The notes below the pieces were generated by a model that ran no database searches, was not told where the DNA came from, and was given only the letters and a program-made list of their open reading frames with translations. Position numbers and translations under genes: made by a program. Below are positions 14,998 through 60,254 of a stretch of DNA of 64,000 bases, one piece after another (within the stretch, counting starts at the first letter, position 1; each line of letters starts with the position of its first letter). Origin of the DNA: Oscillospiraceae bacterium (GTDB lineage Bacteria > Bacillota > Clostridia > Oscillospirales > SIG627); assembly GCA_015063605.1 (NCBI GenBank), contig SVTV01000011.1:1-64000 (forward strand), written 5' to 3'.

Positions 14998-16296
14998 ATG
15001 TATCGGATCGCCATTGAAAGGCTGTTTAAATGGAAGGAAAGCAAATACCGAAAGCCGATGATCATTGAAGGCGCCCGTCAGGTCGGTAAGACATGGCTGA
15101 TGAAGGAATTCGGCAGACAGGCGTACGAGAAGACCGTATATATCAATTTTGACTCCAATTCAAGGATGGCGGAGCTTTTCTCTTCGGATCTTGATACGGA
15201 GCGTCTGATAATGGGTCTGGAGCTGTATTCGGGACAAAGGATCGATCCGGGTAAGACCTTGCTGATATTCGATGAGGTCCAGGAGGTTCCGAGAGCGCTG
15301 TCTTCCCTTAAATACTTTTATGAAAATGCTCCGCAGTATCATATTGTGTGCGCAGGCTCATTGCTCGGGATAGCCTTGCATCAAGGTACGTCCTTTCCCG
15401 TAGGAAAGGTTGATTTTCTGAAGCTGTATCCGCTCTCCTTCAAGGAATATCTGATGGCAACGGAAAAAGAACGGTTCGCGGAATTGATAGATACGAATGA
15501 TTTCCAAATGATCACAAGCTTCAGGCAAACATATATCGATTCCCTGAAGATGTATTATTTCGTGGGCGGAATGCCCGAAGCGGTACAAAGCTTTGCGGAA
15601 AATAAAGATCTTAATGAGGTACGTGAGATACAAAAGCGGATACTCGCGGCGTATGAGCAGGATTTTTCAAAGCACGCTCCCAATGAGATCGTACCGAGGA
15701 TACGTATGCTGTGGAACAGTATACCGTCCCAGCTTGCCAAAGAAAACAAGAAGTTCATCTACGGTATTGTCCGTGAGGGCGCAAGGGCGAAGGAATACGA
15801 AAGTGCGATAATGTGGCTCAGCGACTGCGGTCTTGTCCACAAGGTCAGCCGTGTCAATGCTCCGGGTATCCCTTTGCGGGCGTATGAGGACTTGAAGGCA
15901 TTTAAGCTGTTTGCGTTGGATATAGGACTTCTCGGATGCATGGCGGGGCTGCGTAGGACGGCATTGCTTGACGGCAACGATCTTTTCGTTGAGTTCAAGG
16001 GTGCTCTTACCGAACAGTATGTATGCCAGCAGCTGAAGACCGTTGAGGGAGTGGATATTTATTACTACACCAATGACAGGGGCTCCTGCGAGGTCGATTT
16101 TGTTGTTGATACGGGCGAGCGGATAGTCCCTGTAGAAGTGAAGGCAGAGGTGAATCTCAAGGCAAAAAGCCTTAAGACATACATGGAGAAATTCTCTCCC
16201 GAAATCTCGGTACGCACATCCATGGCGGATTACAAAGTAAGCGACGGTCTTGTCGACCTTCCGTTGTATGCGGTCTGCCGCATCACCATGATATGA
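14998..16296 (+). CDS. AAA+ ATPase with DUF4143 domain (AAA_14 family ATP-binding protein)
   Basis: Walker A GARQVGKTWL near N-terminus, 432 aa, architecture typical of DUF4143 ATPases. Confidence 0.7.
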   Translation: MYRIAIERLFKWKESKYRKPMIIEGARQVGKTWLMKEFGRQAYEKTVYINFDSNSRMAELFSSDLDTERLIMGLELYSGQRIDPGKTLLIFDEVQEVPRALSSLKYFYENAPQYHIVCAGSLLGIALHQGTSFPVGKVDFLKLYPLSFKEYLMATEKERFAELIDTNDFQMITSFRQTYIDSLKMYYFVGGMPEAVQSFAENKDLNEVREIQKRILAAYEQDFSKHAPNEIVPRIRMLWNSIPSQLAKENKKFIYGIVREGARAKEYESAIMWLSDCGLVHKVSRVNAPGIPLRAYEDLKAFKLFALDIGLLGCMAGLRRTALLDGNDLFVEFKGALTEQYVCQQLKTVEGVDIYYYTNDRGSCEVDFVVDTGERIVPVEVKAEVNLKAKSLKTYMEKFSPEISVRTSMADYKVSDGLVDLPLYAVCRITMI

Positions 16297-20746: not shown

Positions 20747-22195
20747 ATGGAAAATCTCCACTTTTTAAATTACAATGAGACAGGTGCAAACAGTTCGGAA
20801 ATAATAGAGGATTGCTTTGCCGACGGAATGTTCAATGAAAATTTTTATAAAATTCTTTTATCCTCTGCGGGAAAAAGAGAGATCCTTAAACGTCAAAGTG
20901 TTTTCAGAGAAGCGGAAAACGAAGAATGCCTTTTGAAGCTTAGAAATGTTTATGAAGGAAGCATCGGAGTAAAGACAGCGTTAAAATGGGTTGAGCGGGC
21001 AAAAGGGGATTTGGAAAAGCAATGTATGCATCTGAAATTTTTGGATAGCTTTCTCAAGTCCGCTCGGACGCTTGCCGAGTTTTCCCAAAGCTCATGCGAG
21101 CCACTAAGAGAGATAGGCACTTTCTGGGATAATGAACTTAAAAAATATCCGCAGCTTTCAGATGATGTGAAGCGTATATCGGAAGGAATGAAAGAGTTTT
21201 TGACGGTCAATTTGGTGGAAAATGATGAACTTTGGATAACTCCCGATTACGGCAGTGTGTTTTATGTGGATATATTGAAGGATTGTGCCGATGCTCTCGG
21301 AGTTGAATGTCAATTACCTTTCGGAAAAGGAAGCATCAGAAGCCCATATTCTGATTTCCTTTCTCTCTTCGGCGGAAAAAGCGAGGCTGTCAGAGAGACT
21401 TTGGATAAATACACTTTTCTTTTGAAGGACAGCTCCGCAGAGCTTTTGGTGTCTTACGGAAGTGAGATAGATTTTTACCTGACATTTATTGATTTTAAAG
21501 AAAACAAAGGAAGCGCTCTGCCACTTTGCTATCCCGAAATATCTCACGAAAAGAAATTTTATGCAAAGGATGCTGCAGATATATCCCTTGTAGTTCAGAA
21601 CATACCGAAAATTGTGACTAACGATATATATATCGATGAAAGCGAACCGTTTTTCTTCATAGTAGGTGCCAACGGCGGAGGAAAGACATCCTATATTCGT
21701 GCTGTGGGAATAAATCTTCTTTTGTTTTTGGCGGGTTGTCCCATATTCGCAAGAGAAGCGCAAATATATCCGTTTGATAATGTGTTTACGCATTTTCCGA
21801 GAAACGAAAAGGAAGAAACCAAGGGCAGACTCAACGAGGAAACAGTCCGCATACAAAACTTATATGACGGCATGGGAAGAAATTCCGTCATTCTTCTTAA
21901 CGAGACTTTCTCTTCCGTGAGCGAGGAAAACGGTACGGAGCTTTCGTTGGATGCGGCGGAGAAAATACGTAATTCCGGCTGTTTCGGACTTTTTGTAACC
22001 CACTACAGAGATGTATGCTTCTCGGAATATCCCTATTTATCGGCGGAAATACAGAAAGGGAATGATAATAACGGCAGAACATTCAAAATAGTCAGAGAAA
22101 ATCGTGATCCGGAAGCGTATATCAATGATATATTGAGAAGATATCGTCTTGATGAAGAATCCTTGAATGTGAGAATTGCGGCGGAGGTAGAGTAA
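20747..22195 (+). CDS. MutS-core ATPase paralog 1 (MutS domains III-V only; no mismatch-binding, connector or Smr domains)
   Basis: MutS domain V Walker A FFFIVGANGGGKTSYIRAVGINLLLFLAGCPIFA (cf. MutS ITGPNMGGKSTYMRQ...AQIGSFVPA); MutS Walker B/signature region LLNETFSSVSEENGTELSLDAAEKIRNSGCFGLFVTHY. Confidence 0.7.
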   Translation: MENLHFLNYNETGANSSEIIEDCFADGMFNENFYKILLSSAGKREILKRQSVFREAENEECLLKLRNVYEGSIGVKTALKWVERAKGDLEKQCMHLKFLDSFLKSARTLAEFSQSSCEPLREIGTFWDNELKKYPQLSDDVKRISEGMKEFLTVNLVENDELWITPDYGSVFYVDILKDCADALGVECQLPFGKGSIRSPYSDFLSLFGGKSEAVRETLDKYTFLLKDSSAELLVSYGSEIDFYLTFIDFKENKGSALPLCYPEISHEKKFYAKDAADISLVVQNIPKIVTNDIYIDESEPFFFIVGANGGGKTSYIRAVGINLLLFLAGCPIFAREAQIYPFDNVFTHFPRNEKEETKGRLNEETVRIQNLYDGMGRNSVILLNETFSSVSEENGTELSLDAAEKIRNSGCFGLFVTHYRDVCFSEYPYLSAEIQKGNDNNGRTFKIVRENRDPEAYINDILRRYRLDEESLNVRIAAEVE

Positions 22196-23646
22196 TGGAA
22201 TTGAGCTTGATGAATCTTGCGGGAAACGAAGCGCCGAAATCTTGTATGACATTGTGTGATGCAACGAAAAGCGATATTTTGTTTTACAGATTTTTTGAAG
22301 CGCTGTCATGTGTCAACGGCAGAAAAGTAAGCGAACGTGAAGTGTTTTCCGATGCTTTGCGTAAATTGATGACACATCCTCTTTGTACAAAAGAAGAGAT
22401 AGTATACAGACAGGATGTTATTTGCGACTTTATTTCCGACAGAGCACTTTGGGACGGGTTTTATTCCTGCTTTTACCATTTGAATGAATGCAGAGAAGAG
22501 CTCAATGTAAAACTGAAAGAAAATATGGGAGCTTACAGAAACGCTTCAAATGCTATATTCAATGCATGCGGATATCTCAGAAGTGTAAGCTTTATATTGA
22601 AAAGAATACTTCTTATCATGAAAAGGCTTAAAAACGTTCTGGATAGCGGAAATTACAGGAGTGAAGGCTTGAAGCGTTTGCACGAATACGTTATTCCTTT
22701 TGATGACGGGAATGAAAAGCTCAAAGAACTTATTTCTGTTTGCGGAAGATTTGAAATGTTTACTTCCGAAGAAGAACGTGACCTACGCTTGGAGTTTGAC
22801 GATCAGGGATGCATACAAAAATTCGGACTTATAAACGAAAAATACGTAAAATTTACCGATCCCCGTTTGAAAGAGAAGAAGAGCTTTTTCAGGAAAAACA
22901 GCATCGGTGAAGTGTATCCTTCTGTGCGGGTTTCTCTTAACGAAGAAAAAGGCTGTGATGTAAAAGCAGTATCGGATATTTCCGATATGATGCAGGATAT
23001 ATCAAGAAGCATATTTGAATCCGTGGGAACTGTTTGCGACGAGAGAGATGTTTTTAAAGCAGTGCTGTTTTTGTATGATCTTCTTTCGGGTAAAAATATT
23101 CCCCTTTGCTTCCCGGAAGTCAACGAAGGCGAGTGTATATTGTACGAAAATCTTTACGACCCTTTTTTATCTCTTGACGGCGGTATAGAAGTGAAGCCGA
23201 GAACTTTTGCTTTTTCACGCAAAAAGGGGCTTATAGTTTGCGGAGATAACGGAAGCGGAAAGACATTTTTGCTCCGTTCTCTCGGAATGGCTCAGGTCAT
23301 GGCACAAAGCGGATTGTTTGTTACGGCGGAAAATGCCTGTATTAACCTGACAGAATGTGTGAAGACCATCTTTGCCGGCAAAGAAAACGAGAGAGTTAAA
23401 ACGGCAAATAAAGGCAGATTCGAACAGGAAGTCAAGCTCCTTTCCGATGCCGCAAGTGAGGATTCTCCGAGATCGCTTTTGCTTATAAATGAGATATTCC
23501 AATCTACGGATTATAAATTGGCTTCGAAAGCGATGGTTCCTATTTTGGGATTTTTGGCAAAAAAGGGGAACTGCTGTGCTATGGCTACACACCTTGATGA
23601 ACTGAAAATAAATTCCGCTTTTGATAATATAGAATTAAGGAGTTGA
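22195..23646 (+). CDS. MutS-core ATPase paralog 2 (domains III-V only)
   Basis: LIVCGDNGSGKTFLLRSLGMAQVMAQSGLFVTA Walker A; LLINEIFQSTDYKLASKAMVPILGFLAKKGNCCAMATHLDEL; lever-like region EEIVYRQDVICDFISD; TAATG start overlap with paralog 1. Confidence 0.7.
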   Translation: MELSLMNLAGNEAPKSCMTLCDATKSDILFYRFFEALSCVNGRKVSEREVFSDALRKLMTHPLCTKEEIVYRQDVICDFISDRALWDGFYSCFYHLNECREELNVKLKENMGAYRNASNAIFNACGYLRSVSFILKRILLIMKRLKNVLDSGNYRSEGLKRLHEYVIPFDDGNEKLKELISVCGRFEMFTSEEERDLRLEFDDQGCIQKFGLINEKYVKFTDPRLKEKKSFFRKNSIGEVYPSVRVSLNEEKGCDVKAVSDISDMMQDISRSIFESVGTVCDERDVFKAVLFLYDLLSGKNIPLCFPEVNEGECILYENLYDPFLSLDGGIEVKPRTFAFSRKKGLIVCGDNGSGKTFLLRSLGMAQVMAQSGLFVTAENACINLTECVKTIFAGKENERVKTANKGRFEQEVKLLSDAASEDSPRSLLLINEIFQSTDYKLASKAMVPILGFLAKKGNCCAMATHLDELKINSAFDNIELRS

Positions 23647-27873: not shown

Positions 27874-29235
27874 TTATATTGATATCGTTCCGTCCGAAAG
27901 GTCTTTTGCCGCAAAGGATACAAAGTAAAACGGTATTGTAAGAAGCTTCTGCTCGTTATCGTAACCGTAATTGTTTTTGGAGATCTTTATGGCAAATTCA
28001 AATTTGTTGTGATTGGAGAACTTTTCAAGAGAATTTAAAGTGCCTCTGCCCTTTTTGACATCTATCGGATAAAGCTTGTTATCCGATTCTATGATAAATT
28101 CAAGCTCTGCCGAGGATTTTCCGCGCCAATAAAACAACTTCAGGTCTTTGGCTACCAGCTCATTGGCAACAAAATTTTCGAAAAAGATGCCTGACAGAGT
28201 GTTTTCTCTGCTGCTTGATATGAAGGATGATGCATTGATACCGCTCTGATATGAGAACATGCCGATGTCTCCGAGAAAAAGACGGAAATTACTTTCATTA
28301 TCAGCCATAAGAGGCATCGAAACATGCTCTTTGAGCTGAAATGACTGATTCACAATGTGCGCTAATGTGAGCCACTGAACAGAGGTGGCAAAATCTCTTG
28401 TCCTGCTGTTTTCCTCGATCAGCCCGGGAGAAAAATTCTTCGATTCTTTGTTGAGCTCTTTGAAAATATTCTCGAATAAGGTGCGAGAGCGCAATACCGA
28501 TTCTCTGCTCGCTTGATACAGCTCCATATCCGAAAGGTAATTATCATATAAAGACTTCAATATCTCTCTTGCTTCGAAAAGATCGCCATCGCTTATATAA
28601 GCGTCTACCGCTTCGGGCATTCCGCCTACAAGCAAGTATCTGTATACTTGCTCCATTGCCAGCTCATGGATATTTGCATCCGGAGGTGTTTTTGTATCGT
28701 ACGCTTTTTTTACGGCGTCATAAAGAGGCGTGTTGGAGTTCAGTAAGAATTCGTCAAAGGTCAACGGATACACGGTTATCTGATTTATTTTTCCTACGGG
28801 AAAAAGAAACTTACCGGTCTCCTCGGAGCCCTTTTTTCGTGTCTCCCTTTGGAGCTTGATCCTTACCATAGAACCTGTTGCGATGACGGGGATATCTCTG
28901 AGATCCTGACAAAAGTATTTCAGAGATGATATTATATTCGGACACTCCTGGATCTCATCGAAGATCAAAAGAACGCTTTCGTCTATTCTTCTTCCTTTTG
29001 AAAGAGAAATATATTCTACGATCTTCTCGGCATTTGCGGTCTCGGAGCAAAATTCCCGTATATCGTCTTCCTTCTTCAGATCGATATAGATATAGCTGTT
29101 CTTGTAATACCTTTCGGCAAATATTTTTTGAACAAGGTAAGTCTTTCCGACCTGTCTTGCTCCCCACACGATCAGAGGCTTTTTTCTTTTATTATTATTC
29201 CAGGCTATTAATGATTGCAAAGCAATTCGTTCCAT
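27874..29235 (-). CDS. AAA+ ATPase with DUF4143 domain (second, diverged copy)
   Basis: Walker A WGARQVGKTYLVQ; 453 aa; same architecture as 14998-16296 but low sequence identity. Confidence 0.7.
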   Translation of the reverse strand: MERIALQSLIAWNNNKRKKPLIVWGARQVGKTYLVQKIFAERYYKNSYIYIDLKKEDDIREFCSETANAEKIVEYISLSKGRRIDESVLLIFDEIQECPNIISSLKYFCQDLRDIPVIATGSMVRIKLQRETRKKGSEETGKFLFPVGKINQITVYPLTFDEFLLNSNTPLYDAVKKAYDTKTPPDANIHELAMEQVYRYLLVGGMPEAVDAYISDGDLFEAREILKSLYDNYLSDMELYQASRESVLRSRTLFENIFKELNKESKNFSPGLIEENSRTRDFATSVQWLTLAHIVNQSFQLKEHVSMPLMADNESNFRLFLGDIGMFSYQSGINASSFISSSRENTLSGIFFENFVANELVAKDLKLFYWRGKSSAELEFIIESDNKLYPIDVKKGRGTLNSLEKFSNHNKFEFAIKISKNNYGYDNEQKLLTIPFYFVSFAAKDLSDGTISI

Positions 29236-43684: not shown

Positions 43685-44962
43685 ATGAAAAGAACATTTT
43701 TGATTTGTATTTCTATGATGTTTATATTCTCATGCTTTTCTTGCACGAGGCAGGAGCTGCCGTATATTTCGGAAGAAGCACCAAAAACACTAGATACCGA
43801 TGTTGTACAAGTATATTCATACGATCCGACAGATGACGGACTTGAAAACGTAAGATTTCCTGAGGTGTATATTACCAATGCAGGATTGTATTACAGTGAC
43901 GGTGAGTTGTATTTCAGATCAAGCGATATGTATTATAAATATAATAAAGAAACAGGAGATTTTTTGCCTTTTTGTAAGGATCCCGTATGCGATCATAGAA
44001 CGCTTGAGTGTCCATTTTATGGTAATACATTTTCGTGCTTTTACATTCATGACGAAAATATTATTTATTTGCAAGACACTCCCGATTTGGAGCACATTTC
44101 CGGATCCAATACGCTTAACATATATGATGTTGAAAAAGACAAAAGAAGAATACTGCATTACTATGACTCTGACTCAAATATGATGAGCTCGAATATGACC
44201 TTCTATAAGGATGAATTGTTATTTACCGATATAGTAAAAGATGAAAAAACAGAAGAATATATATATTCGCTGTGCGCAGTAAACTTAAAAACGGGTAAAA
44301 AACGTATTTTGTTGAGTGAAGCGTGGATGATAGCAGCACTAATGTCAGATGATGGCGGCGTTTACTATACGGACTTAAAGGAACAAAAAAATATATATGC
44401 CAAAAATAATGATCTAAAAGATACGGAAGAACTTCCGTTTTACAATACAAGATTCTTTTTTGTTGGTGATAAAGTTATCTACGTAGATAATAATGGATAC
44501 TTAACTTCTTCTGATAGGTACGGAAATAACAAAAAGAGTTTGGGGATATCCGATATAGACAGTTTCTTTGTAACGGATAAATATATATATTACAGGCACA
44601 ACGGTACCACAAATATAGGAAAAACAATTGAACAGACGGGAAGAGGAGAAAAAATAGAACAAACTATGGAGTTGAATGTCAATTCCATATACAGATGTAA
44701 TCACGACGGAAGCAATATTGAAGAAGTGATAAAGTTCTATGACGGCGAACCTCTTGAAGCGGGGGAAAGTGTGTACTATTCTCAAAGAATGTTTATACTT
44801 TCCGGTTATTATTATACTAAGTATGATCGTCTTATAATGGGTGAAGACGGATATCTTGTGTCTGACACCGGCGATAAAAAGTTCAATAATTATCTCCGTA
44901 TAAACATTGAAACCGGCGAAAAGTATATTATAAAGGTTCCGAATATTTACGTTAACCATTAA
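43685..44962 (+). CDS. Paralogous Cys-motif lipoprotein family member 1 (possibly beta-propeller, DUF5050-like)
   Basis: Lipobox FSCFSC; conserved CKDPVCDHRTLECPF, YSLCAVNLKTGKKR, YRCNHDGSNIEEVIKFYDGEPLEAG, NYLRINIETGEKYIIKVPNIYVNH. Confidence 0.7.
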   Translation: MKRTFLICISMMFIFSCFSCTRQELPYISEEAPKTLDTDVVQVYSYDPTDDGLENVRFPEVYITNAGLYYSDGELYFRSSDMYYKYNKETGDFLPFCKDPVCDHRTLECPFYGNTFSCFYIHDENIIYLQDTPDLEHISGSNTLNIYDVEKDKRRILHYYDSDSNMMSSNMTFYKDELLFTDIVKDEKTEEYIYSLCAVNLKTGKKRILLSEAWMIAALMSDDGGVYYTDLKEQKNIYAKNNDLKDTEELPFYNTRFFFVGDKVIYVDNNGYLTSSDRYGNNKKSLGISDIDSFFVTDKYIYYRHNGTTNIGKTIEQTGRGEKIEQTMELNVNSIYRCNHDGSNIEEVIKFYDGEPLEAGESVYYSQRMFILSGYYYTKYDRLIMGEDGYLVSDTGDKKFNNYLRINIETGEKYIIKVPNIYVNH

Positions 44963-45224
44963 AAGTAAGGCTTGCCGATTTGCGGCAAGCCTTTGAAAAA
45001 ATCGGCTTTGGATTATCAAGAAAAGTGAAACAAAAGTAGTTTTCGATTTGTTATATACATATAAGTGAATTGAATTATAAAATAATCAAAAAACGGCAAG
45101 GTTTACAAATTGTTCATTGACTGTATTTGCGATATATAGTATAATGATACTATGGTATAATAACACATCCGGTATTTGTGCGTCGGTAAAACCATTCAAT
45201 ACTATCGGAGCGAAAGGAGTTACT

Positions 45225-46487
45225 ATGAAAAGAACAATATTAATAGTTATCAGCGCAATATTTGTCTTATCCTGCTTTTCCTGCACTAGGCAGGAATTAC
45301 CGTATCTTTCAGAAGAGATGACGAAAAATGACGGTTTTTCACAAGTATATTCATACACCCCGACCGATGACGGACTTGAAAACGTAATTTTCAGCGGCGT
45401 GTATATGGCATCGAACGATTTATACTACAATGATGGTAATATGTATTTGTGTTCGGCAGATATGTACTACAAAATTGACCTTGAAACGGGAAGACTTACA
45501 ACATTGTGTAAAGACCCGGTGTGCAATCATAAAACATGGGAGTGTCCTTTGCACGGGCAAACCTCGTATTTTTACGTTTTCGGAAAAGATTTTATTTCCA
45601 GACAGTACACATTGATCGGAGGAGAGCGTTTGTTAACGCTTAATCACTTTGATATCGAAAAATCAGTAAGAAAAGTGCTGCATAACTTTAATATGAATTC
45701 AAGTAAACTGATCGAGAACAGGACACTTTACAATGATGAATTATTATTCGTAGATGTTATAAAGGATGAAAAAACAGAAGAGTACATATATTCACTCTGT
45801 GCCGTAAATATAAGAACCGGAAAAAAACGTGTAATGGTACGTGATGCATGGAGAATAACACCTTTAATGGCTGACGAGGGCGGTGTGTACTACTCCGACT
45901 TGAAGGAACAATATTATTTTTATGCAAGAAACAACGATCTTGACGACAGAGAGATACTTCCTTTCTATGCAGTGGCGTTTTATTTAGTGGGGGATAAGAT
46001 AATTTACGAAGACAAAGATGGCTGCCTGATATATTCTGACAGAGACGGAAAAAACAAGATTAATTTGAATATAAAGGGTGTAGACGATTTCTTTGTAACC
46101 GATAACTACGTATATTACCGATATGAGGGAAAAACAAATATTGGAAAAATGCTAACACGAACAGGTCCGGGAAAAACAGAAGAAGTAACGATAGAATTGA
46201 ATATGAATTCCATATACAGATGCAGTCACGACGGAAGCAATGTTGAAGAAGTGATAAGGTTCCATGACGGCGAACCTCTTGAAGCAGGGGAGACCGTGTA
46301 CTATTCTCAAAATATGTTTATACTTTCCGGTTATTACTATACCGGGCTTTTAAGTTATACAATGGGTGAAGACGGATATCTTACAGGAGACCGAGGCGAT
46401 GACAAATGTCGCAATTATCTCCGTATAAACATTGAAACCGGCGAAAAGTATATTATAAAAGTACCGAATATTTACGTTAACCATTAA
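45225..46487 (+). CDS. Paralogous Cys-motif lipoprotein family member 2
   Basis: MKRTILIVISAIFVLSCFSCTRQELPY; CKDPVCNHKTWECPL; same C-terminal motifs; start at ATG 45225 behind AAAGGAG. Confidence 0.7.
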   Translation: MKRTILIVISAIFVLSCFSCTRQELPYLSEEMTKNDGFSQVYSYTPTDDGLENVIFSGVYMASNDLYYNDGNMYLCSADMYYKIDLETGRLTTLCKDPVCNHKTWECPLHGQTSYFYVFGKDFISRQYTLIGGERLLTLNHFDIEKSVRKVLHNFNMNSSKLIENRTLYNDELLFVDVIKDEKTEEYIYSLCAVNIRTGKKRVMVRDAWRITPLMADEGGVYYSDLKEQYYFYARNNDLDDREILPFYAVAFYLVGDKIIYEDKDGCLIYSDRDGKNKINLNIKGVDDFFVTDNYVYYRYEGKTNIGKMLTRTGPGKTEEVTIELNMNSIYRCSHDGSNVEEVIRFHDGEPLEAGETVYYSQNMFILSGYYYTGLLSYTMGEDGYLTGDRGDDKCRNYLRINIETGEKYIIKVPNIYVNH

Positions 46488-46687
46488 AAGTAAGGCTTGC
46501 CGATTTGCGGCAAGCCTTTGAATGAACATTTAAACAATCAAAAAGAACAGAAAAACGGCAAAGTTTACAAATTGTTCATTGATTTTCTTTGCATAATGTT
46601 GTAAAATGATAATGAGATGTTAAAGCACATCCAAATTTTGCACATCGGCAAAAATATCAGAAGCCATTGAAGCGAAAGGAGACCCCC

Positions 46688-47956
46688 ATGAAAAAAATAT
46701 TTTTAATTCTTGTTAGTGTAATACTTGTGTTTTCTTGCGTTTCATGCAAGAGAGAAGAATTGCCGTATTTAACGGAACCTGTAAAAATAGGTGATAATTT
46801 TTCCGAGGTATATACATACGCACCAAATGATGATTCATTAATGAATGTTACATTTCCGGAGTCATTCATACACAATTTAGGATTAGCGTACTACGAAGAT
46901 GAATTGTATCTTGAGTCTCATGACATGGTATACAAAATCAATCTTGAAACCGGAAAACTTACGACCTTGTGTAAAGATCCTATATGCAATCATAGAACAA
47001 AAGAATGTCCTTTTTTTGATTTGTATTCTTATTTTTACATTTTTGATAATAATGTGATTTATTATAGAGATAACACTGTAGTTGAAAAAAATAATATTAC
47101 CAGCAATCTCACAATCGCTTTCTATGATATTAAGAAAAGTAAGTTTTACACACTTTACGAATTTAGCTCCAAACAAAATACTTTCTCGTACAATATGACG
47201 TTATATAATGATGAACTGATGTTTACTGATATAATCCGTGACGAAAAAACAAACGAAAGGACCCATACTTTGTATGCTTTGAACGTAAAAACACGTAAAA
47301 AGAGAGTATTATACAAAGGAGTTCCGCGATACTCCGCTATAACTGCCGATGAAAACGGAGTTTATTATTCTGACAGAGTGAGCGGAAAACATTTGTATGC
47401 CAAAGATAACGATTTGAAAAAAGCTGTAGAGCTTCCTTATAGTTTAGGGTTCACGATAAACGGAAAGATTATTCACAAGACAGACCACACAACTCTTTCT
47501 TCTACACTTGCTTCATATGATTTGAAAACAAATGAATCCAAAGACCTTGGATTAGGTGAAGTAGAGACGTACTTTGTGACAGACAAATACATATATTTCA
47601 GACCGACAGGGGAAATTGATATAGGAAAATTGAAAACCCAGAGCGGGCCGGATCGTGTTTACATAGATCCTTTGATAGATAACTTTAATTCCATTTACAG
47701 ATGTAATCATGATGGAAGTAATGTTGAAGAAGTGATAAAGTTCTATGACGGGGATGTTCAGACGGGAGAGAGTGTGTACTATATTTCGGGAATATTCGTT
47801 TTGGACGGATACTTATATTCGCCTTACTTTAAGTACACCAAACAGGAGGACGGATATTTCACTAATAAGGATGAAGACCCGGATAATGACAAGTACCTCA
47901 GAATAAATATCGAAACAGGAGAAAGATATATAATAAAAACGCCGAGAATGTTTTAA
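46688..47956 (+). CDS. Paralogous Cys-motif lipoprotein family member 3 (most diverged)
   Basis: MKKIFLILVSVILVFSCVSCKREELPY; CKDPICNHRTKECPF; YRCNHDGSNVEEVIKFYDG; ends ...LRINIETGERYIIKTPRMF. Confidence 0.7.
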   Translation: MKKIFLILVSVILVFSCVSCKREELPYLTEPVKIGDNFSEVYTYAPNDDSLMNVTFPESFIHNLGLAYYEDELYLESHDMVYKINLETGKLTTLCKDPICNHRTKECPFFDLYSYFYIFDNNVIYYRDNTVVEKNNITSNLTIAFYDIKKSKFYTLYEFSSKQNTFSYNMTLYNDELMFTDIIRDEKTNERTHTLYALNVKTRKKRVLYKGVPRYSAITADENGVYYSDRVSGKHLYAKDNDLKKAVELPYSLGFTINGKIIHKTDHTTLSSTLASYDLKTNESKDLGLGEVETYFVTDKYIYFRPTGEIDIGKLKTQSGPDRVYIDPLIDNFNSIYRCNHDGSNVEEVIKFYDGDVQTGESVYYISGIFVLDGYLYSPYFKYTKQEDGYFTNKDEDPDNDKYLRINIETGERYIIKTPRMF

Positions 47957-48069
47957 TATGCGATTTTGAAAAAATCGGCTTTGGATTTTCAAGAAAAGTG
48001 AAACATAACACATCCGGTATTTGTGCGTCGGTAAAACTATTCAATACTATCGGAGCGAAAGGAGTTACT

Positions 48070-49341
48070 ATGAAAAGAGCATTATTAATACTCATCAGCG
48101 CAATATTTGTCTTATCCTGCTTTTCTTGCACAAGGCAAGAGCTGCCGTATCTTTCGGAAGAAGCACCAAAAACACTAAATACCGATGTTGTACAAGTATA
48201 TTCATACGATCCGACAGATGACGGACTTGAAAACGTAAGATTTCCTGAGGTGTATATTACCAATGCAGGATTGTATTACAGTGACGGTGAGTTGTATTTC
48301 AAATCAAGCGATATGTATTATAAATATAATATAGAAAGGGGAAATATGTCACCTTTTTGTAAGGATCCTATATGCAATCACAAAACATCGGAGTGTCCTT
48401 TTTACGGTTATATATTTGACGGTTTTTACATTTACGAAGGTAACATTATTTATACACAAAGAGTTCCGATTGGTGAAGATCGTTCCGAAACTCTAAACAT
48501 ATATGATGTAGAGAAAGACGAAAGAAGAATATTGCATCATTTTGATATGAAATCAAGCAGAAGAACTACCAATATGACTTTTTATAACGGAGAATTGTTA
48601 TTTACCGATATAGTAAAAGATGAAAAAACGGAAGAATATATATATTCGCTGTGCGCAGTAAACTTAAAAACGGGTAAAAAACGTATTTTATTAAGTGAGG
48701 GATGGCAGATGTCTGCGCTTATGTCAGATGAAAACGGTGTGTATTACGGAGATGTAAAAAATAAGAAGCTGATATATGCGAGAAATAATGATTTTAATGA
48801 CACAGAAGAGCTTCCGTTTTACAATACACAATTTTATTTTGTCGGGGATAAAGTTATCTACGTAGATAATAATGGATACTTAACTTCTTCTGATAGGTAC
48901 GGAAATAACAAAAAGAATTTGGGGATATCCGATATAGACAGTTTCTTTGTAACGGATAAATATATATATTACAGGCACAACGGTACCACAAATATAGGAA
49001 AAACAATTGAACAGACGGGACGAGGAGAAAAAATAGAACAAACTATGGAGTTGAATGTCAATTCCATATACAGATGCAGCCACGACGGAAGCAATATTGA
49101 AGAAGTGATAAAGTTCTATGACGGTGAACCTCTTGAAGCGGGGGAAAGTGTGTACTATTCTCAAAGTATGTTTATACTTTCCGGATATTATTATACTAAG
49201 TATGATCGTCTTATAATGGGCGAAGACGGATATCTTGTGTCTGACACCGGCGATAAAAAGTTCAATAATTATCTCCGTATAAACATTGAAACCGGCGAAA
49301 AGTATATTATAAAAGTGCCGAATATATACGTAAATCATTGA
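48070..49341 (+). CDS. Paralogous Cys-motif lipoprotein family member 4 (near-identical to member 1 at both ends)
   Basis: MKRALLILISAIFVLSCFSCTRQELPY; about 500 bp at the 3-prime end and about 270 bp at the 5-prime end are about 97 percent identical to member 1 at DNA level. Confidence 0.7.
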   Translation: MKRALLILISAIFVLSCFSCTRQELPYLSEEAPKTLNTDVVQVYSYDPTDDGLENVRFPEVYITNAGLYYSDGELYFKSSDMYYKYNIERGNMSPFCKDPICNHKTSECPFYGYIFDGFYIYEGNIIYTQRVPIGEDRSETLNIYDVEKDERRILHHFDMKSSRRTTNMTFYNGELLFTDIVKDEKTEEYIYSLCAVNLKTGKKRILLSEGWQMSALMSDENGVYYGDVKNKKLIYARNNDFNDTEELPFYNTQFYFVGDKVIYVDNNGYLTSSDRYGNNKKNLGISDIDSFFVTDKYIYYRHNGTTNIGKTIEQTGRGEKIEQTMELNVNSIYRCSHDGSNIEEVIKFYDGEPLEAGESVYYSQSMFILSGYYYTKYDRLIMGEDGYLVSDTGDKKFNNYLRINIETGEKYIIKVPNIYVNH

Positions 49342-54927: not shown

Positions 54928-56748
54928 ATGAAAATGAGAATGTTATCCGCAAGAAAACGCTTTATTAAAGTGCTATCGGCAATCACAGCACTTTTGTTCA
55001 TCCTTTGCGGATGTGCATCAGCTCCCGTTGTCACAACATCGGAGGTGACTGCGGAGAATTTCTCGGCAACCGCCGAGACGGCAGAGGAGAACGACGGTAT
55101 CATACGTTTTATCAAGGATGGTGCTCCCGCCGTAAGGCTCGTCGCTTCGGGTACGGGCGGAGGCATCAACGATACCTCAAGAGAGCTTGTTGTAAGATTG
55201 GGTAAATATCTCAATGAGAAAACAGGCCTTGATTTCGATAAATACCGCGATACAAGAAAGCTTACGGAAGAAGAGGAGAAAATGGCGGAGATAGTTATCG
55301 GTATCACGAACCGCGAGGAGAGCATTGAGGCTTACGAAGCTATCGGATACGATGATTGCTCCATTACCGTTTCGGGAAACAAGATCCTTTTGTCAGCCTA
55401 TACGGACGATAATCTCTTAAAGGTATACAACGCTTTTATAACCCGCATATCGAAAGCGGAAAAAGAGCACGGAGAGTATTGCTTCAGTGAGGAGCAGACT
55501 GTTGTAAGCACTCCGAAGAATGCATCGGGAGAGCTTCCCAAATATACAAGCGGTAAGTATGCGGGCATTTACGATGCGGGTGGAAAAACGGAGCTTCTGC
55601 TTGTGAAAGCCACGGATAAGGATGAGTTTATGGAATATCTTGAGCTTCTTGAAAAAAGCGGCTTCGAAAAATATTCCGTGCGTGAGGTCAACGGAAATGT
55701 TTTTTCCATATACAACAGTGAAAAATATACGGTCAATGCGGGCTTTTACGATTATGAGGATTCCGCAAGGATACTTATAGAGCCTCTTGCACCGCTTACC
55801 GGTCTTGAAGAAGATGATAAGGATCATAAAAAGATCTGCGAGCCCATGATAACCATGCTTGGCCTTGATACCGAGGACGGCAGTAATGCCAACGGACTTT
55901 CCGTTCTGATACGTCTTGAAGACGGAAGATTCATAATTTTCGACGGCGGTCATAACAGCTCCACCAATTCTATAAATCTCCTTGAGGAAATGAAGAGGCA
56001 GTCGGCTGATTATGTTTCCTCCGAAGACAAGATAACGGTTGCCGCATGGGTGGTCACCCATGTTCACGGAGACCATTCGGGAATGATGACACATAATATG
56101 GGAAGATTTTCAGGCATCAATATAGAAAAGGTGCTTATGAATACCATATCCCGTGAGGCTCTCGATGCGGCTAAGGCATCAAATGAATATAAAGACAATT
56201 TTGATGCGGGCGAAGGAACGGGCGATACATCCCTTATGAATACCCTTGATAAAGCGGGTATAGAGTACCGCAGAGTACATACGGGGCAAGTGTTCTTTAT
56301 GGGCGGTGCGAAGATGGAGATACTGTATACTCTCGACAGCTTCACCCCGAAACTTCTCAATGCCTTCAATACTACATCTCTTGTAGTGGGGCTTGAAATT
56401 GCGGGACAGAAGATAATCATAACGGGAGACGCTACAGGCGATGCCATGCAGATATGCGCCAATATGTACGGCGACTATCTCAAGTGCGATATAGCATCGG
56501 TAGCACATCACGGCTATACCACCTGGGGCAACAATCAGGGAATGATAAATGCATATAATCTTATGCGCCCTGCGGTAGTTCTCTGGTGTCAGGGAAGCAA
56601 GGCGTATCCCTCCTATAAGGATAAGGTGTATAATAAGCCCCTTTTCGAATCGGAGGAATACCGCGAGGTATTCGTAGCGGGCTTCAGAGGTGAATTCCAC
56701 CGTCTTAGCCTGCCTTATACCCCGAATGAGCAGAAAGCGGCGGCGTAA
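54928..56748 (+). CDS. Lipoprotein with C-terminal MBL-fold metallo-hydrolase domain
   Basis: Lipobox LFILCGCASA; HxHxDH motif VVTHVHGDHSG; additional His further C-terminal (VAHHGY). Confidence 0.6.
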   Translation: MKMRMLSARKRFIKVLSAITALLFILCGCASAPVVTTSEVTAENFSATAETAEENDGIIRFIKDGAPAVRLVASGTGGGINDTSRELVVRLGKYLNEKTGLDFDKYRDTRKLTEEEEKMAEIVIGITNREESIEAYEAIGYDDCSITVSGNKILLSAYTDDNLLKVYNAFITRISKAEKEHGEYCFSEEQTVVSTPKNASGELPKYTSGKYAGIYDAGGKTELLLVKATDKDEFMEYLELLEKSGFEKYSVREVNGNVFSIYNSEKYTVNAGFYDYEDSARILIEPLAPLTGLEEDDKDHKKICEPMITMLGLDTEDGSNANGLSVLIRLEDGRFIIFDGGHNSSTNSINLLEEMKRQSADYVSSEDKITVAAWVVTHVHGDHSGMMTHNMGRFSGINIEKVLMNTISREALDAAKASNEYKDNFDAGEGTGDTSLMNTLDKAGIEYRRVHTGQVFFMGGAKMEILYTLDSFTPKLLNAFNTTSLVVGLEIAGQKIIITGDATGDAMQICANMYGDYLKCDIASVAHHGYTTWGNNQGMINAYNLMRPAVVLWCQGSKAYPSYKDKVYNKPLFESEEYREVFVAGFRGEFHRLSLPYTPNEQKAAA

Positions 56749-57633: not shown

Positions 57634-57682
57634 TAAGGGCTTGCTTAAAATGCTTTTTACGGCATTCAAGGCAAGCCCTTGT
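57634..57682. terminator. Bidirectional intrinsic terminator between convergent SGNH and PBP-like genes
   Basis: GGGCTTGCTTAAAATGC-N8-GCATTCAAGGCAAGCCC followed by TTGTCGTTTATTTTTTC. Confidence 0.65.
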
Positions 57683-57685
57683 CGT

Positions 57686-59344
57686 TTATTTTTTCTTTTT
57701 TGATGTGCTTGATGAAGTCTTTCGTGACGAAGCTCCCGAGGATGGGCCCGCGTGCCTCTTAACTGAGGATGCAGACTTAACGGAAGAGGAGCTTGAGGAT
57801 GAAGAGGGACGTTTTTTCGGCTGTCTTCTTTTCTGAGCCTCAATTACACGCTGTGCCCGTTCATTTTGAGTCTCTCTGTAGGCGGTGCGTACTCTGCGTG
57901 CTGTTGCCTGAAATTTTTGGCTTCTTTCATGGCGCTTTGCTTTTCTCTCACGCTTTTCCTCTGCAGTCCTTTCGTCAAGGGAGCGGTAGTAATCCTTTAT
58001 CTCATCCTTCATGGAACGAACCTCGATGATAGTTCGTACCACCGATCTTATGACGATGAATAAAATGAAAACGGCGATCAGAGTAAGCAGTATTCCCACG
58101 GTAACGTAGATTACCGTCTGTACTTCCTTTTTATGAAGGAATTCATTGAGATCCTTCAATACATGAAGAAAAATGCTCTTTGATATATCGCTGTCGGCAA
58201 TAACATCAACGGAGGCGGTCAGAACGTCGTTGTAATAAATATCGAGAGTGCCGCATACCTGTCCCTTTCTTACGGGAGCGGTAAGATAGTCGGAGGTGAG
58301 CCTGAGATCCGTGGTTATTGCCGATGAATCGAAATCTGCGGAAACAAGTATCTCCGCAGAATCGGATGTCACTATGACAACGTGGTCGGAGTCGGCGCCC
58401 AATTCCACGGGAAGCTCGCACATTACGCTGTTATCATATATGACGGTCTCCTCATGAAAGTTGCTTTTGCCGTAGTTCAGAAGCTTTTTTACATCACGGA
58501 AATGCTCGTATGTGTTGCCCGTTACCGTTGCACCGGAAAGGATGACGATATTGGTAAGACCCATATATTCCATTGCGGAGGCAGCGCAGTAGCCCGATTG
58601 GGCGGTAAATCCCGCCGCCATGCCCTGGGCTCCGTCAACGTAATATCCCAATGCGGGGTTGGGATTTATTACGTAATTTCTGTTTGTAAGGGTGCGCTTC
58701 GCTTTTTTGTTTGTTGCGGGAATGGAATGGCTTATCTTCGATGACATACGCATGAAATCATCGTGCTTGTAAAGCTCACGGCAAATCTTAAGAAGATCCT
58801 CCATGGTGGTGTACATGAGAGAGGAATGGATGCCCGTTGTGTTATCAAAGTATGTGTTGGTGCATCCCAGCTCCGCCGCACGTGATGTCATTCTCTCGAT
58901 GAAAATGTCGATACTTCCGCACACCGTCTCCGCAAGGGCGTTTGCCGCATCGTTGGCACCGTGTATGACCATGGCATAAAGAAGAGATTCGTATGATATG
59001 ACTTCCCCCTCCGTGAGACCGATATTCGTTCCTCCCGAACGGGAAAGAACCATGTCGGAGATGACAACATCGGGAACGAGATGCTCTTTTTCATCCCAAT
59101 ATTCAAATGCAAGGAGAGCCGTCATAAGCTTTGTCAATGCGGCGGGATATATTTTTTCCGTGGAGTTTCTTTCGAAAAGAACCCTGTCGTGCTCCAAGTT
59201 GTAAAGTATTACAGATGTGGCATTGACCTGCGGCTCGGTATTTTCCGCCGATACCAAAGGAGAAAAACATATGCCGAAAATCAAGACGAGCGCCGTTAAG
59301 GAAACTGTAAAACGGTGCAGGCTGTCAAAGCGAGGAGTTTTCAA
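57686..59344 (-). CDS. D-Ala-D-Ala carboxypeptidase (S11/DacB-type PBP) homolog with substituted catalytic motifs, C-terminal TM and basic Ser/Lys-rich tail
   Basis: Signal peptide; PBP fold motifs present but read PAALTK (expected SxxK), GANDAA (expected S[GA]NDA), AAGFT (expected KTGFT); TM VIYVTVGILLTLIAVFILFIVI then RK-rich tail ending SSSSSSSSVKSASS...KKKK. Confidence 0.6.
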   Translation of the reverse strand: MKTPRFDSLHRFTVSLTALVLIFGICFSPLVSAENTEPQVNATSVILYNLEHDRVLFERNSTEKIYPAALTKLMTALLAFEYWDEKEHLVPDVVISDMVLSRSGGTNIGLTEGEVISYESLLYAMVIHGANDAANALAETVCGSIDIFIERMTSRAAELGCTNTYFDNTTGIHSSLMYTTMEDLLKICRELYKHDDFMRMSSKISHSIPATNKKAKRTLTNRNYVINPNPALGYYVDGAQGMAAGFTAQSGYCAASAMEYMGLTNIVILSGATVTGNTYEHFRDVKKLLNYGKSNFHEETVIYDNSVMCELPVELGADSDHVVIVTSDSAEILVSADFDSSAITTDLRLTSDYLTAPVRKGQVCGTLDIYYNDVLTASVDVIADSDISKSIFLHVLKDLNEFLHKKEVQTVIYVTVGILLTLIAVFILFIVIRSVVRTIIEVRSMKDEIKDYYRSLDERTAEEKRERKAKRHERSQKFQATARRVRTAYRETQNERAQRVIEAQKRRQPKKRPSSSSSSSSVKSASSVKRHAGPSSGASSRKTSSSTSKKKK

Positions 59345-60254
59345 AATAAGCTCTCGCCTCCTTTATATCCGATTCGATCTTGTCACGAAGCTCATCCACA
59401 GAGGAAAACTTCTGCTCGTCTCTGAGGCGCTTCACAAAAAGCACTCGTATCTCTTTTCCAACCAATTCACCGCTGAAATCGAGGATATGCGTTTCACAGT
59501 TGACGAGATCCTCCGATGAGACCGTGGGACGTGTTCCCACATTGGAAACACCGTTGTATACCTTTCCGTCAAAGGCTACCTTCACGGCATACACGCCCTT
59601 CTTTGGGATTATATGCTCGGGAGGGAAGTTCTGATTTATGGTGGGTGCACCTATGCACCGTCCCAATCTGTTTCCCGTTACAACGGGGAAGGTGATGAAA
59701 AAGTGTCTTCCCAAGAATGCTCTTGTCTGCTCCATGTCTCCCGATTCGATAAGATATCTTATGAATGTACTGCTTACGACCACTTCTCCGCAGATTATGG
59801 GAGGAATGACGGAGGTTGATATACCCTTTTCTTCAAGAAGCCTTGTGAGTATATCGGCATTTCCCAATCCTCCTGCGGCAAAGGTGAAATTGAATCCGCA
59901 TACAACGTGCTTTGCATTGAATTTCTTGATTAGTATCTCTTCAACGAAGCTTTCGGGGGAAAGATGACGTACCTTGTTGAAATCGGCATAGTATGCGCAG
60001 TCGATACCCATGGATTCAAGTATCTCGGTTTTTTCTTCAAGCGTTGTGATACTCTTTACCTTGACGGTGTCGTTCAATATATTTTCGGGATGTGTTTCGA
60101 AGCTCCATACGAGGCAGCGGCATCCCATTTGTTTTGAGTAAGCTTTTATAGAGTCAAATAATTTTGTATGACCGATGTGCGCTCCGTCAAAATTTCCGAT
60201 GGCTATTACCGTAGGATAATCGAGAGGGAGCATATTGTCTTTGATAAGGAGCAT
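59325..60254 (-). CDS. ribF: Bifunctional riboflavin kinase / FMN adenylyltransferase
   Basis: IAIGNFDGAHIGHTKLF nucleotidyltransferase motif; C-terminal riboflavin kinase domain (PTINQNFP...GVSNVGTRPT). Confidence 0.85.
   Translation of the reverse strand: MLLIKDNMLPLDYPTVIAIGNFDGAHIGHTKLFDSIKAYSKQMGCRCLVWSFETHPENILNDTVKVKSITTLEEKTEILESMGIDCAYYADFNKVRHLSPESFVEEILIKKFNAKHVVCGFNFTFAAGGLGNADILTRLLEEKGISTSVIPPIICGEVVVSSTFIRYLIESGDMEQTRAFLGRHFFITFPVVTGNRLGRCIGAPTINQNFPPEHIIPKKGVYAVKVAFDGKVYNGVSNVGTRPTVSSEDLVNCETHILDFSGELVGKEIRVLFVKRLRDEQKFSSVDELRDKIESDIKEARAYFENSSL

Follow-up and report, generated by a model that had tools for sequence, protein, structure and literature searches.

A predicted non-catalytic S11 carboxypeptidase homolog from an Oscillospiraceae bacterium, and the ribF-linked clade without a KTG lysine to which it belongs

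Introduction

Low-molecular-weight penicillin-binding proteins (PBPs) are normally taken as enzymes and as beta-lactam targets. A gene on contig SVTV01000011.1 of an Oscillospiraceae bacterium, within a 64,000-nucleotide stretch of DNA that was analysed as a whole (hereafter "the window"), raises the question of what such a protein may do once its catalytic residues have been lost. The gene encodes a homolog of the D-alanyl-D-alanine carboxypeptidases (DD-carboxypeptidases) of peptidase family S11, in which each of the three catalytic motifs SxxK, SxN, and KTG is substituted. Our preferred reading, to which we assign a probability of roughly 60%, is that of a non-catalytic S11-fold cell-wall protein, which binds a ligand or a partner non-covalently and whose role in wall synthesis is that of a reader, shield, or regulator, a function that we infer from the lines of evidence set out below.

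Results and Discussion

Domain architecture and loss of the catalytic motifs

The gene and the features of its extracellular part are listed here.

57686..59344, reverse strand: coding sequence of the S11-derived pseudo-carboxypeptidase, 552 amino acids (aa) plus stop codon (list of open reading frames, ORFs; Pfam S11 and PBP5_C)
59246..59344, reverse strand: signal peptide, residues 1-33, with a basic N-terminus, a hydrophobic core, and a VSA/EN cleavage-like site recognized by eye (hydropathy, model)
58577..59242, reverse strand: Peptidase_S11 (penicillin-binding) domain, residues 35-256 (PF00768, E 5e-35; Foldseek; predicted local distance difference test, pLDDT, ~98)
58181..58450, reverse strand: PBP5_C beta-sandwich stalk, residues 299-388 (PF07943, E 1e-6)
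59129..59146, reverse strand: SxxK remnant P67-A-A69-L-T-K72, Ser replaced by Ala and Lys kept (alignments, model, sequence)
58952..58960, reverse strand: SxN remnant G129-A-N131, Ser replaced by Gly and Asn kept (alignments, sequence, clade statistics)
58610..58618, reverse strand: KTG remnant A243-A244-G245 on strand beta3, Lys and Thr replaced and Gly kept (alignments, model)

A preliminary description made from the letters of the window had recognized a signal peptide and the S11 architecture, and both were borne out by hydropathy and the Pfam matches. Hydropathy peaks at residues 8-34, and the AlphaFold model has a helix at residues 4-26. The scores of PF00768 (121 bits versus a cut-off of 27.6) and PF07943 (29.3 bits versus 21.2) exceed the respective thresholds. 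The AlphaFold2 model, which was built with 105 homologs, reaches a pLDDT of 94-99 in the ectodomain, and the beta strands of the PBP5_C region (residues 296-383) were modelled at 95-98. In a Foldseek comparison with the PDB, the best matches were DacA, PBP5, and PBP6 (E ~1e-30). The NCBIfam models of this group (DacA, DacC, DacD, PBP3, and others) all match the protein, but with 50-111 bits versus cut-offs of 294-765. Because these scores are so far below the cut-offs, the protein is a relative of the S11 enzymes and the equivalog of no named one. The label "DacB-type" in the preliminary description must thus be given up: the nearest matches are generic S11 proteins of the PBP5/PBP6/PBP3 type.

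The motifs were located by unambiguous phmmer alignments to PBP5 of Pseudomonas aeruginosa (4k91) and PBP6 of Escherichia coli (3it9), which paired PAS-LTK with P67-A-A69-L-T-K72, S-G-N with G129-A-N131, and K-T-G with A243-A244-G245. In the structural model, PAALTK, GAN, and AAG occupy the canonical sites of SxxK, SxN, and KTG, with A69 at the N-terminus of helix 68-85, GAN between helices 118-128 and 131-142, and AAG on strand 239-247. The codon of Ala69 is GCA (59140-59138) and differs from TCA by one substitution. The motif readings of the preliminary description, including this codon, are therefore upheld by the structure alignments, the modelled positions, and the sequence. The same description had envisaged that intact motifs might be found elsewhere by comparison with PBP structures. 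This comparison, carried out with PBP5 and PBP6, revealed no intact substitute in the ectodomain, and a regular-expression scan of the ectodomain found no other SxN or K[TS]G motif. Two candidates were considered and rejected. S61-T-E-K64 resembles SxxK, but it lies in the loop before the helix, in the wrong structural position, and is not conserved in orthologs; RSG at residue 102 is located away from the required structural position.

In S11 enzymes and other PBPs, the serine of SxxK is the acylated nucleophile, whereas the serine of SxN and the lysine of KTG serve proton transfer and carboxylate recognition. Since the nucleophilic serine, the SxN serine, and both the lysine and the threonine of KTG are replaced, the protein would be neither a DD-carboxypeptidase nor a covalent penicillin-binding protein. 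It is predicted that it cannot form the acyl-enzyme needed for D-Ala-D-Ala cleavage or for covalent binding of beta-lactams. Because neither the SxxK serine nor SxN nor KTG was found intact, the protein is classed, as judged from its sequence, as a non-peptidase S11 homolog and not as a DacA, DacB, or DacF enzyme.

A clade of S11 proteins without the KTG lysine

A profile of six orthologs was compared with 1.84 billion cluster representatives, and the best 150 matches together with a few references yielded a set of 161 proteins, 107 of which lack the KTG lysine. In a neighbour-joining (NJ) tree, 106 of these 107 sequences form one clade, which contains the window protein and not a single lysine-bearing member. 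After the three motif regions had been removed from the distances, 105 of the 107 still grouped together, and in 50 bootstrap replicates the largest pure clade of lysine-less sequences comprised 88-106 members. According to these trees, the window protein belongs to a monophyletic KTG-less S11 clade with no fewer than 106 clusters at a threshold of 50% identity.

The consensus of the clade reads PAS[TF][VA]K / GGANDAA / GMNAGST, and the three motifs differ in the extent of their degeneration (n=106 in each case). The position of the KTG lysine is occupied by N (66), S (14), C (8), I (7), A (4), V (3), or others (4), that of the SxN serine by G (66), N (20), S (16), C (3), or T (1), and that of the nucleophile by S (64), A (23), P (7), G (7), T (2), R (1), N (1), or Y (1). 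Parsimony on the NJ tree requires at least 23 changes between serine and other residues at the nucleophile and at least 11 at the SxN serine, counts that are rough because the tree is approximate. This pattern points to an order of loss in which the KTG lysine, whose absence is universal, went first, the SxN serine next, and the nucleophile last and many times independently. Since the nucleophile changed so often, the function shared by the clade would no longer need it. Further active-site-associated positions that are constant among active relatives have been replaced in the clade as well (T71 by V, H170 by T, H177 by M) or lost (S106, G86).

The remodelled cleft might instead perform another chemistry, for example that of an esterase or amidase. 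Such activities are known from PBP-like proteins with an altered KTG box, as FmtA, in which no KTG has been identified, is a D-amino esterase, and EstB, with WGG in place of KTG, is an esterase (PMC4752606). A residual catalytic role would also be in line with the strong conservation of K72, N131, and T247, with the Ser-Lys pair found in 64 of the 106 clade members, and with the co-variation of Ser69 and Asn243: Asn243 is present in 52 of the 64 members that retain Ser69 versus 14 of the 42 Ser-less ones, counts that are not corrected for phylogeny. However, both FmtA and EstB need the SxxK serine, which is Ala in the window protein and its orthologs at 34-77% identity, and the ectodomain offers no alternative Ser/Lys, SxN, or KTG arrangement. 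The numerous changes at the nucleophile also argue for a clade function that is independent of it. An enzyme with altered chemistry is thus a decidedly improbable explanation, and for the window protein with its Ala69 any non-canonical catalysis is very unlikely.

The preferred reading as a non-covalent binding protein draws on the residues that persist. Twelve positions are 91-100% conserved in the clade (K72, E114, N131, D132, D183, R217, N223, Y234, G241, G245, T247, and G251), with K72 at 98%. The cleft residues among them are kept even in the 42 Ser-less members: K72 in 40, N131 in 38, D132 in 41, R217 in 39, N223 in all 42, and T247 in 40. Since they survive the loss of the nucleophile, the cleft would still be in use, for binding rather than for acyl transfer. 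Alternatively, the cleft may play no part, with the protein serving as a structural or partner-binding subunit, a scaffold through which another wall enzyme is bound and regulated. Constraint throughout the ectodomain and conserved family-specific positions outside the motifs (Y48, N49, A79, L137, A285, A292) would fit such a role, and there are well-established cases of wall hydrolases regulated by non-catalytic paralogs, such as EnvC, NlpD, and SpoIIQ. If the cleft were irrelevant, though, K72, N131, D132, and T247 should drift like Ser69, which they do not, and no conserved wall-enzyme gene accompanied the ribF/S11-like gene pair (see below) in the loci examined. This scaffold role therefore appears unlikely.

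All clade members seen stem from metagenomes or metagenome-assembled genomes, which are assigned to Oscillospiraceae, Eubacteriales, or "Clostridia bacterium" and originate from rumen, horse, goat, yak, and human gut. Public records label them simply as D-alanyl-D-alanine carboxypeptidase. A profile of the family alignment, searched against a set of 5.8 billion proteins, retrieved mainly relatives of the first sequence and no clade member from a named cultured organism; it also brought up other degenerate S11 lineages. Full-text literature searches for catalytically inactive or degenerate DD-carboxypeptidases or PBPs brought up no account of an S11 clade that is KTG-less and ribF-linked.

Integrity of the gene and selection

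As GCA is only one substitution away from TCA, the gene might be an artefact caused by a sequencing error at the serine codon, an option that the preliminary description had raised, or a recently inactivated carboxypeptidase drifting toward loss. However, contigs of three separate JGI (Joint Genome Institute) metagenomes code for exactly this 552-aa protein, and a sequencing error at this codon is therefore excluded. The changes hit all three motifs and are common to the orthologs, those at 77, 76, 52, 42, and 34% identity being intact, with common degenerate motifs and, throughout the range of 34-77%, with Ala at the nucleophile position. Intact orthologs were found down to 30% identity.

The ratio of nonsynonymous to synonymous substitutions (dN/dS, Nei-Gojobori) of the ectodomain is 0.071 and 0.060 in comparisons with the 76-77%-identical orthologs P0002 and P0003, respectively, with dS at 1.5-2.0 and thus near saturation. 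The corresponding ratio of uncorrected proportions (pN/pS) of the adjoining ribF gene is 0.07 in the same ortholog comparison. The ectodomain is under strong purifying selection. In the Ser/Lys-rich tail, pN/pS amounts to 0.5-0.6, so that the tail changes much faster than the ectodomain while its composition is kept. A decaying gene would also be hard to reconcile with a clade of this size. Taken together, the identity across metagenomes and the low dN/dS rule out a sequencing error or pseudogene as candidate explanations, and an artefact or dying gene has next to no chance of being correct. The pseudo-enzyme with a retained scaffold that the preliminary description had proposed, by contrast, is supported by the motif placement, the dN/dS values, and the membership in the KTG-less clade.

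Linkage to ribF and genomic context

59325..60254, reverse strand: ribF, bifunctional flavin adenine dinucleotide synthetase/riboflavin kinase (Pfam FAD_syn and Flavokinase)
59357..59364, reverse strand: Shine-Dalgarno sequence AAAGGAGG, 12 nucleotides (nt) 5' of the TTG start codon, within the 3' end of ribF (sequence)
57635..57680, reverse strand: hairpin 3' of the stop codon of the S11-like gene, followed by a U-rich stretch; likely terminator (RNA folding)

Loci around S11 homologs and specific proteins were collected from genomes and metagenomes. The metagenome scan added only three new clade members, because its peptide patterns also match active S11 proteins. Where the S11 gene has no KTG lysine (29 loci), ribF is located directly upstream on the same strand in 24 cases. 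One of the five remaining loci is a contig with only 52 nt of upstream sequence, and the other four belong to other, unrelated degenerate lineages. In contrast, ribF precedes none of the 139 S11 genes with an intact KTG; for 120 of them, the available upstream sequence is 1 kb or longer. Counted as distinct proteins, the orthologs examined are ribF-linked in all 24 cases, and the three closest ones were confirmed separately. The distance between the two genes ranges from a short overlap to ~144 nt, and in one case a single gene on the opposite strand is inserted.

In the window, the last 20 nt of ribF overlap the start of the S11-like gene, which uses TTG as start codon; this codon and the Shine-Dalgarno sequence are both kept in the three nearest orthologs (L169, L170, L171). 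Because ribF, lgt, ispE, and the genes of an amino-acid ABC (ATP-binding cassette) transporter permease and its substrate-binding protein (SBP) precede it on the same strand with short gaps, the S11-like gene is probably the final cistron of a housekeeping operon, although co-transcription is deduced from gene order. On its other side, a hairpin of -24.1 kcal/mol (z = -4.5 in RNA folding) separates the gene from a convergent SGNH/GDSL hydrolase gene and is likely a terminator between the two. A consensus scan for terminators around the operon missed this hairpin, which has a long loop and was revealed by folding. The corresponding promoter scan gave 10 candidates versus 8.4 expected from shuffled sequences, which is no better than chance. 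Rfam and tRNA scans of the whole window found no Rfam family and no tRNA gene.

Apart from the ribF/S11-like pair, the surrounding genes vary among loci. The subclade of the window protein has the order SBP - permease - ispE - lgt - ribF - S11-like gene, and in the sister subclade, which also has long tails, a small ORF and two cyclophilin genes precede ribF. A small ORF of ~111 aa, with no Pfam match on record, accompanies ribF in locus L014 and in the cyclophilin-containing subclade. In seven short-tailed members (L014, L061, L087, L088, L089, L092, L100), ireB (PF06135) is located directly 5' of ribF, and in two of these seven loci (L061, L088) genes for a PASTA kinase and a PP2C phosphatase are found near the ireB-ribF-S11-like genes. 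IreB/ReoM is a substrate of the PASTA kinase and controls MurA and hence the supply of peptidoglycan precursors (PMC7286690, PMC12077105). The ireB neighbourhood is thus a hint, if a weak one, of a wall-homeostasis context, and lgt in the operon of the window provides a similarly weak cell-wall context. Neither ireB nor a PASTA kinase gene was found anywhere in the window, which also contains no active S11 paralog.

Membrane anchor and cytoplasmic tail

58034..58123, reverse strand: single transmembrane (TM) helix, residues ~408-437, with the core VIYVTVGILLTLIAVFILFIVI (Kyte-Doolittle hydropathy up to 3.16 in 19-residue windows)
57836..58033, reverse strand: cytoplasmic charged helix, residues 438-503 (helix at pLDDT 59-87; composition; motif alignment)
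57689..57835, reverse strand: disordered Ser/Lys-rich tail, residues 504-552 (pLDDT 29-38; composition)

In the model, one continuous helix (residues 406-504) spans the TM and cytoplasmic segments. The charged helix contains 19 K/R and 13 D/E among 66 residues and carries ARRVRTAYRE, which is conserved with the orthologs. The 115 residues that follow the TM helix have an isoelectric point of 11.2 and include 22 Ser, 18 Arg, 16 Lys, and 7 Thr. Pfam detected no domain in the tail, with only sub-threshold low-complexity matches such as Selenoprotein_S and Zip.

The preliminary description had called the TM anchor and the long basic tail unusual. For the anchor, this is correct with respect to E. 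coli PBP5 and Bacillus subtilis DacA but not among clostridial relatives, as a C-terminal TM helix is the norm there, both within the clade (113 of 114 members) and in active-type proteins (51 of 56). The tail is indeed present, and most clade members have instead a mere 3-33 Arg/Lys-containing residues, which amount to plain stop-transfer signals. Only ~30 of the 114 members, mainly around the window protein and in the sister subclade, have tails of 89-207 residues. Long tails are not peculiar to pseudo-enzymes, though; since active paralogs carry them as well, the tail would be a recurrent accessory of clostridial S11 proteins that is not tied to the loss of catalysis. Among these active-type proteins, P0125, P0134, P0231, and P0252 have tails of 110-160 aa with a common RDYFEEFF-like end, which looks like a short linear motif for a cytoplasmic partner.

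The long tails of the clade are uniformly basic (net charge +13 to +37, 24-38% K+R) and share a layout of a membrane-proximal charged helix and a disordered region rich in P, Q, S, T, K, and R. The motif of the window group, ARRVR(S/T)AYRE, can be aligned with R-x-R-R-V-R-G-A-L-R-E-G-F of the sister group, whose tails also share KAVAKVPEKYR and a C-terminal KWPD. These conserved short motifs suggest a binding partner.

Such a partner might belong to the PASTA-kinase/IreB stress pathway, with the S11-like protein as a TM adaptor or substrate whose ectodomain reports the status of the wall and whose Ser-rich tail is phosphorylated or recruits other proteins. This scenario would account for the ireB-ribF-S11-like gene order in seven loci, for the adjacent kinase and phosphatase genes in L061 and L088, and for the abundance of Ser and Thr and the conserved short motif in the tail; a PBP used as a sensor also has a precedent in PbpP (PMC8092216). 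However, it is precisely the ireB-adjoining members that have short tails (3-30 aa), whereas the long-tailed subclades have neither ireB nor a kinase gene nearby, and both genes are absent from the window. The tail sequence is poorly conserved, and neighbourhood alone shows no interaction. A role of the window protein in this pathway is thus quite unlikely.

Proposed function

As a non-catalytic binding protein, the S11-like protein might work as follows. A cleaved signal peptide would direct the S11 domain and the PBP5_C stalk across the membrane to its outer side, resulting in a type-I membrane protein that is anchored by the single TM helix and has the basic helix and disordered Ser/Lys-rich segment in the cytoplasm. 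The cleft, in which K72, N131, D132, R217, N223, and T247 are kept, would be a non-covalent binding site. Its likeliest ligand may be the terminus of the peptidoglycan stem peptide on nascent wall or lipid II; otherwise, a partner wall enzyme might be bound. Through stalk and anchor, the cleft would be positioned at the membrane-proximal level at which lipid II and nascent glycan strands expose their D-Ala-D-Ala termini. The favoured role is that of a reader or shield of stem peptides, which might modulate trimming or cross-linking or mark sites of new synthesis. In the long-tailed subclade, the basic helix with ARRVRxAYRE could offer a docking site for a cytoplasmic partner. The peptidoglycan-binding, regulatory, or signalling role put forward in the preliminary description is thus plausible.

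Several observations weigh against this proposal. The main counter-evidence comes from E. coli, where PBP5(S44G) loses its substrate-dependent localization (PMC2909392); removal of the nucleophile can therefore weaken behaviour that is driven by the stem peptide. The Ser-Lys pair is kept by 60% of the clade (64/106), and Ser69 co-varies with Asn243, so that the ancestral function of the clade may involve a chemistry that has since been lost in the window protein. The identity of the ligand is a guess. No obvious functional meaning can be attached to the linkage with ribF, and the ireB neighbourhood does not occur in the subclade of the window protein and may be merely an inherited gene order. 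Finally, the tail has no detectable domain and evolves fast outside its short motifs, and long cytoplasmic tails are also found on ~9 active-type relatives, several of which end in RDYFEEFF.

The proposal could be extended to the clade as a whole, whose members would then be previously unrecognized, PBP-derived TM readers with a cleft that binds un-crosslinked stem peptides and, where present, long tails that couple binding to a cytoplasmic partner, maybe in the PASTA-kinase/IreB pathway. The ireB and PASTA-kinase genes flank basal members of the clade. This generalization is speculative and, on balance, rather unlikely.

Other degenerate S11 lineages and further features of the window

Degenerate S11 proteins are not confined to the ribF-linked clade. 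An abundant lineage of 417-424 aa from outside the window (P0096-P0120, P0320-P0333) has the motif set PGATVK / ASANDVA / GGREGYT, with Ala in place of the nucleophilic serine and REG in place of KTG; the lineage falls into many clusters, including one found on 20 contigs, and does not belong to the ribF-linked clade. Further degenerate sequences are P0293-P0301 (with P0298 named Ruminococcus flavefaciens), P0290-P0292, P0113, and those of loci L142/L144, L020, and L143. Their motif sets include PGPLVN/TSSVEAC/GIKTANL (472 aa, both SxxK residues lost), PAALTK/PIGHDAA/GVKNGTT, TGTLAK/IGANDAA/GGIASYT, PAGLTK/ALDNRSC/GIIAGYT, and PGSFTK/SSANDAA/GSRTSAS. The four further degenerate lineages for which loci were at hand are not ribF-linked. 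Dead S11 paralogs thus appear to have originated more than once in Oscillospiraceae and Ruminococcaceae, and with at least four additional lineages the phenomenon may be common in this group.

Elsewhere in the window, the following genes were noted.

43685-49341, forward strand: four tandem paralogous ORFs of 425, 456, 429, and 447 aa, three with weak DUF5050 matches
20747-23646, forward strand: two adjoining ORFs of ~480 aa, each with only MutS domain V (ATPase), 38-39% GC
54928-56748, forward strand: 606-aa ORF with a lipoprotein-like signal (…LFILCGCAS…)
14998-16296, forward strand, and 27874-29235, reverse strand: two AAA_14 + DUF4143 ATPase genes
405-2795: glycoside hydrolase (GH) of family GH95
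11931-14765: GH2-like glycoside hydrolase

The tandem array has a GC content of ~35%, compared to ~45-47% elsewhere in the window, and may encode acquired or fast-evolving surface proteins. The two MutS-like paralogs are devoid of the mismatch-binding domains. The 606-aa ORF had no Pfam match at 1e-5, with just a faint Lactamase_B match on record; a homolog is located beside the S11-like gene in the ortholog locus L169.

Implications

Pseudo-enzymes are common in most enzyme families, and the existence of one in family S11 is in itself not surprising. What stands out is a large and coherent clade, in which catalytic residues were lost stepwise and repeatedly while the cleft was conserved, together with the invariant linkage to ribF and the conserved short motifs of the long basic tail. 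In this clade, the PBP5 scaffold probably serves the wall biology of Gram-positive bacteria in a non-enzymatic way that has not been described before. Because its members are annotated as D-alanyl-D-alanine carboxypeptidase, the numbers of DD-carboxypeptidases and PBPs counted in these genomes are inflated. The repeated loss of the nucleophile on a fixed background also amounts to a natural experiment, which could separate the cleft residues needed for binding from those needed for chemistry.

Comparison with known systems

The active S11 DD-carboxypeptidases (PBP5/DacA and PBP6/DacC of E. coli, PBP5 of P. aeruginosa, DacA and DacB of B. subtilis, and PBP3 of Streptococcus pneumoniae) have the same ectodomain of S11 and PBP5_C. 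Like them, the window protein is secreted and C-terminally anchored, and it keeps the SxxK lysine, the SxN asparagine, the KTG glycine, and the threonine that follows. Unlike them, it has other residues in place of the nucleophilic serine, the serine of SxN, and the lysine and threonine of KTG, its anchor is a true TM helix with a 115-aa cytoplasmic tail instead of an amphipathic helix, its gene has a fixed position after ribF, and its NCBIfam equivalog scores are 6-8 times under the cut-offs. MEROPS keeps a category of "non-peptidase homologues" for S11 sequences without catalytic residues. The window protein fits this category, which is, however, a bookkeeping class and not a described family.

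FmtA of Staphylococcus aureus and EstB of Burkholderia gladioli demonstrate that loss of the KTG box alone need not end catalysis, provided that the SxxK serine is present (PMC4752606). This precedent bears on the Ser-retaining members of the clade. Both proteins belong to the R61/class-C (S12) branch, whereas the window protein is S11 by all sequence and fold matches and has Ala in place of the serine.

SCO4439 of Streptomyces coelicolor has a cytoplasmic domain in addition to its TM region and DD-carboxypeptidase domain (PMC4751497). It is an active enzyme with a recognizable regulator domain; the window protein has neither the nucleophile nor a recognizable cytoplasmic domain. PbpP of Bacillus thuringiensis is a PBP that serves as a beta-lactam sensor and not as a wall-building enzyme (PMC8092216). 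This use is akin to the role proposed here, although the window protein differs in having no nucleophile. The sensor-transducers BlaR1 and MecR1 possess an acylatable sensor and a cytoplasmic zinc-protease, in contrast to the window protein with its missing nucleophile and a tail that has no Pfam domain and was modelled as helix and disorder.

EnvC, NlpD, and SpoIIQ are degenerate LytM-domain proteins, non-catalytic regulators of wall hydrolases, and degenerate LytM proteins activate amidases. They differ from the window protein in their unrelated fold (metallopeptidase M23), in their architecture, and in having known partners and mechanisms, but they embody the same concept: the dead fold of a wall enzyme that is conserved and acts by binding.

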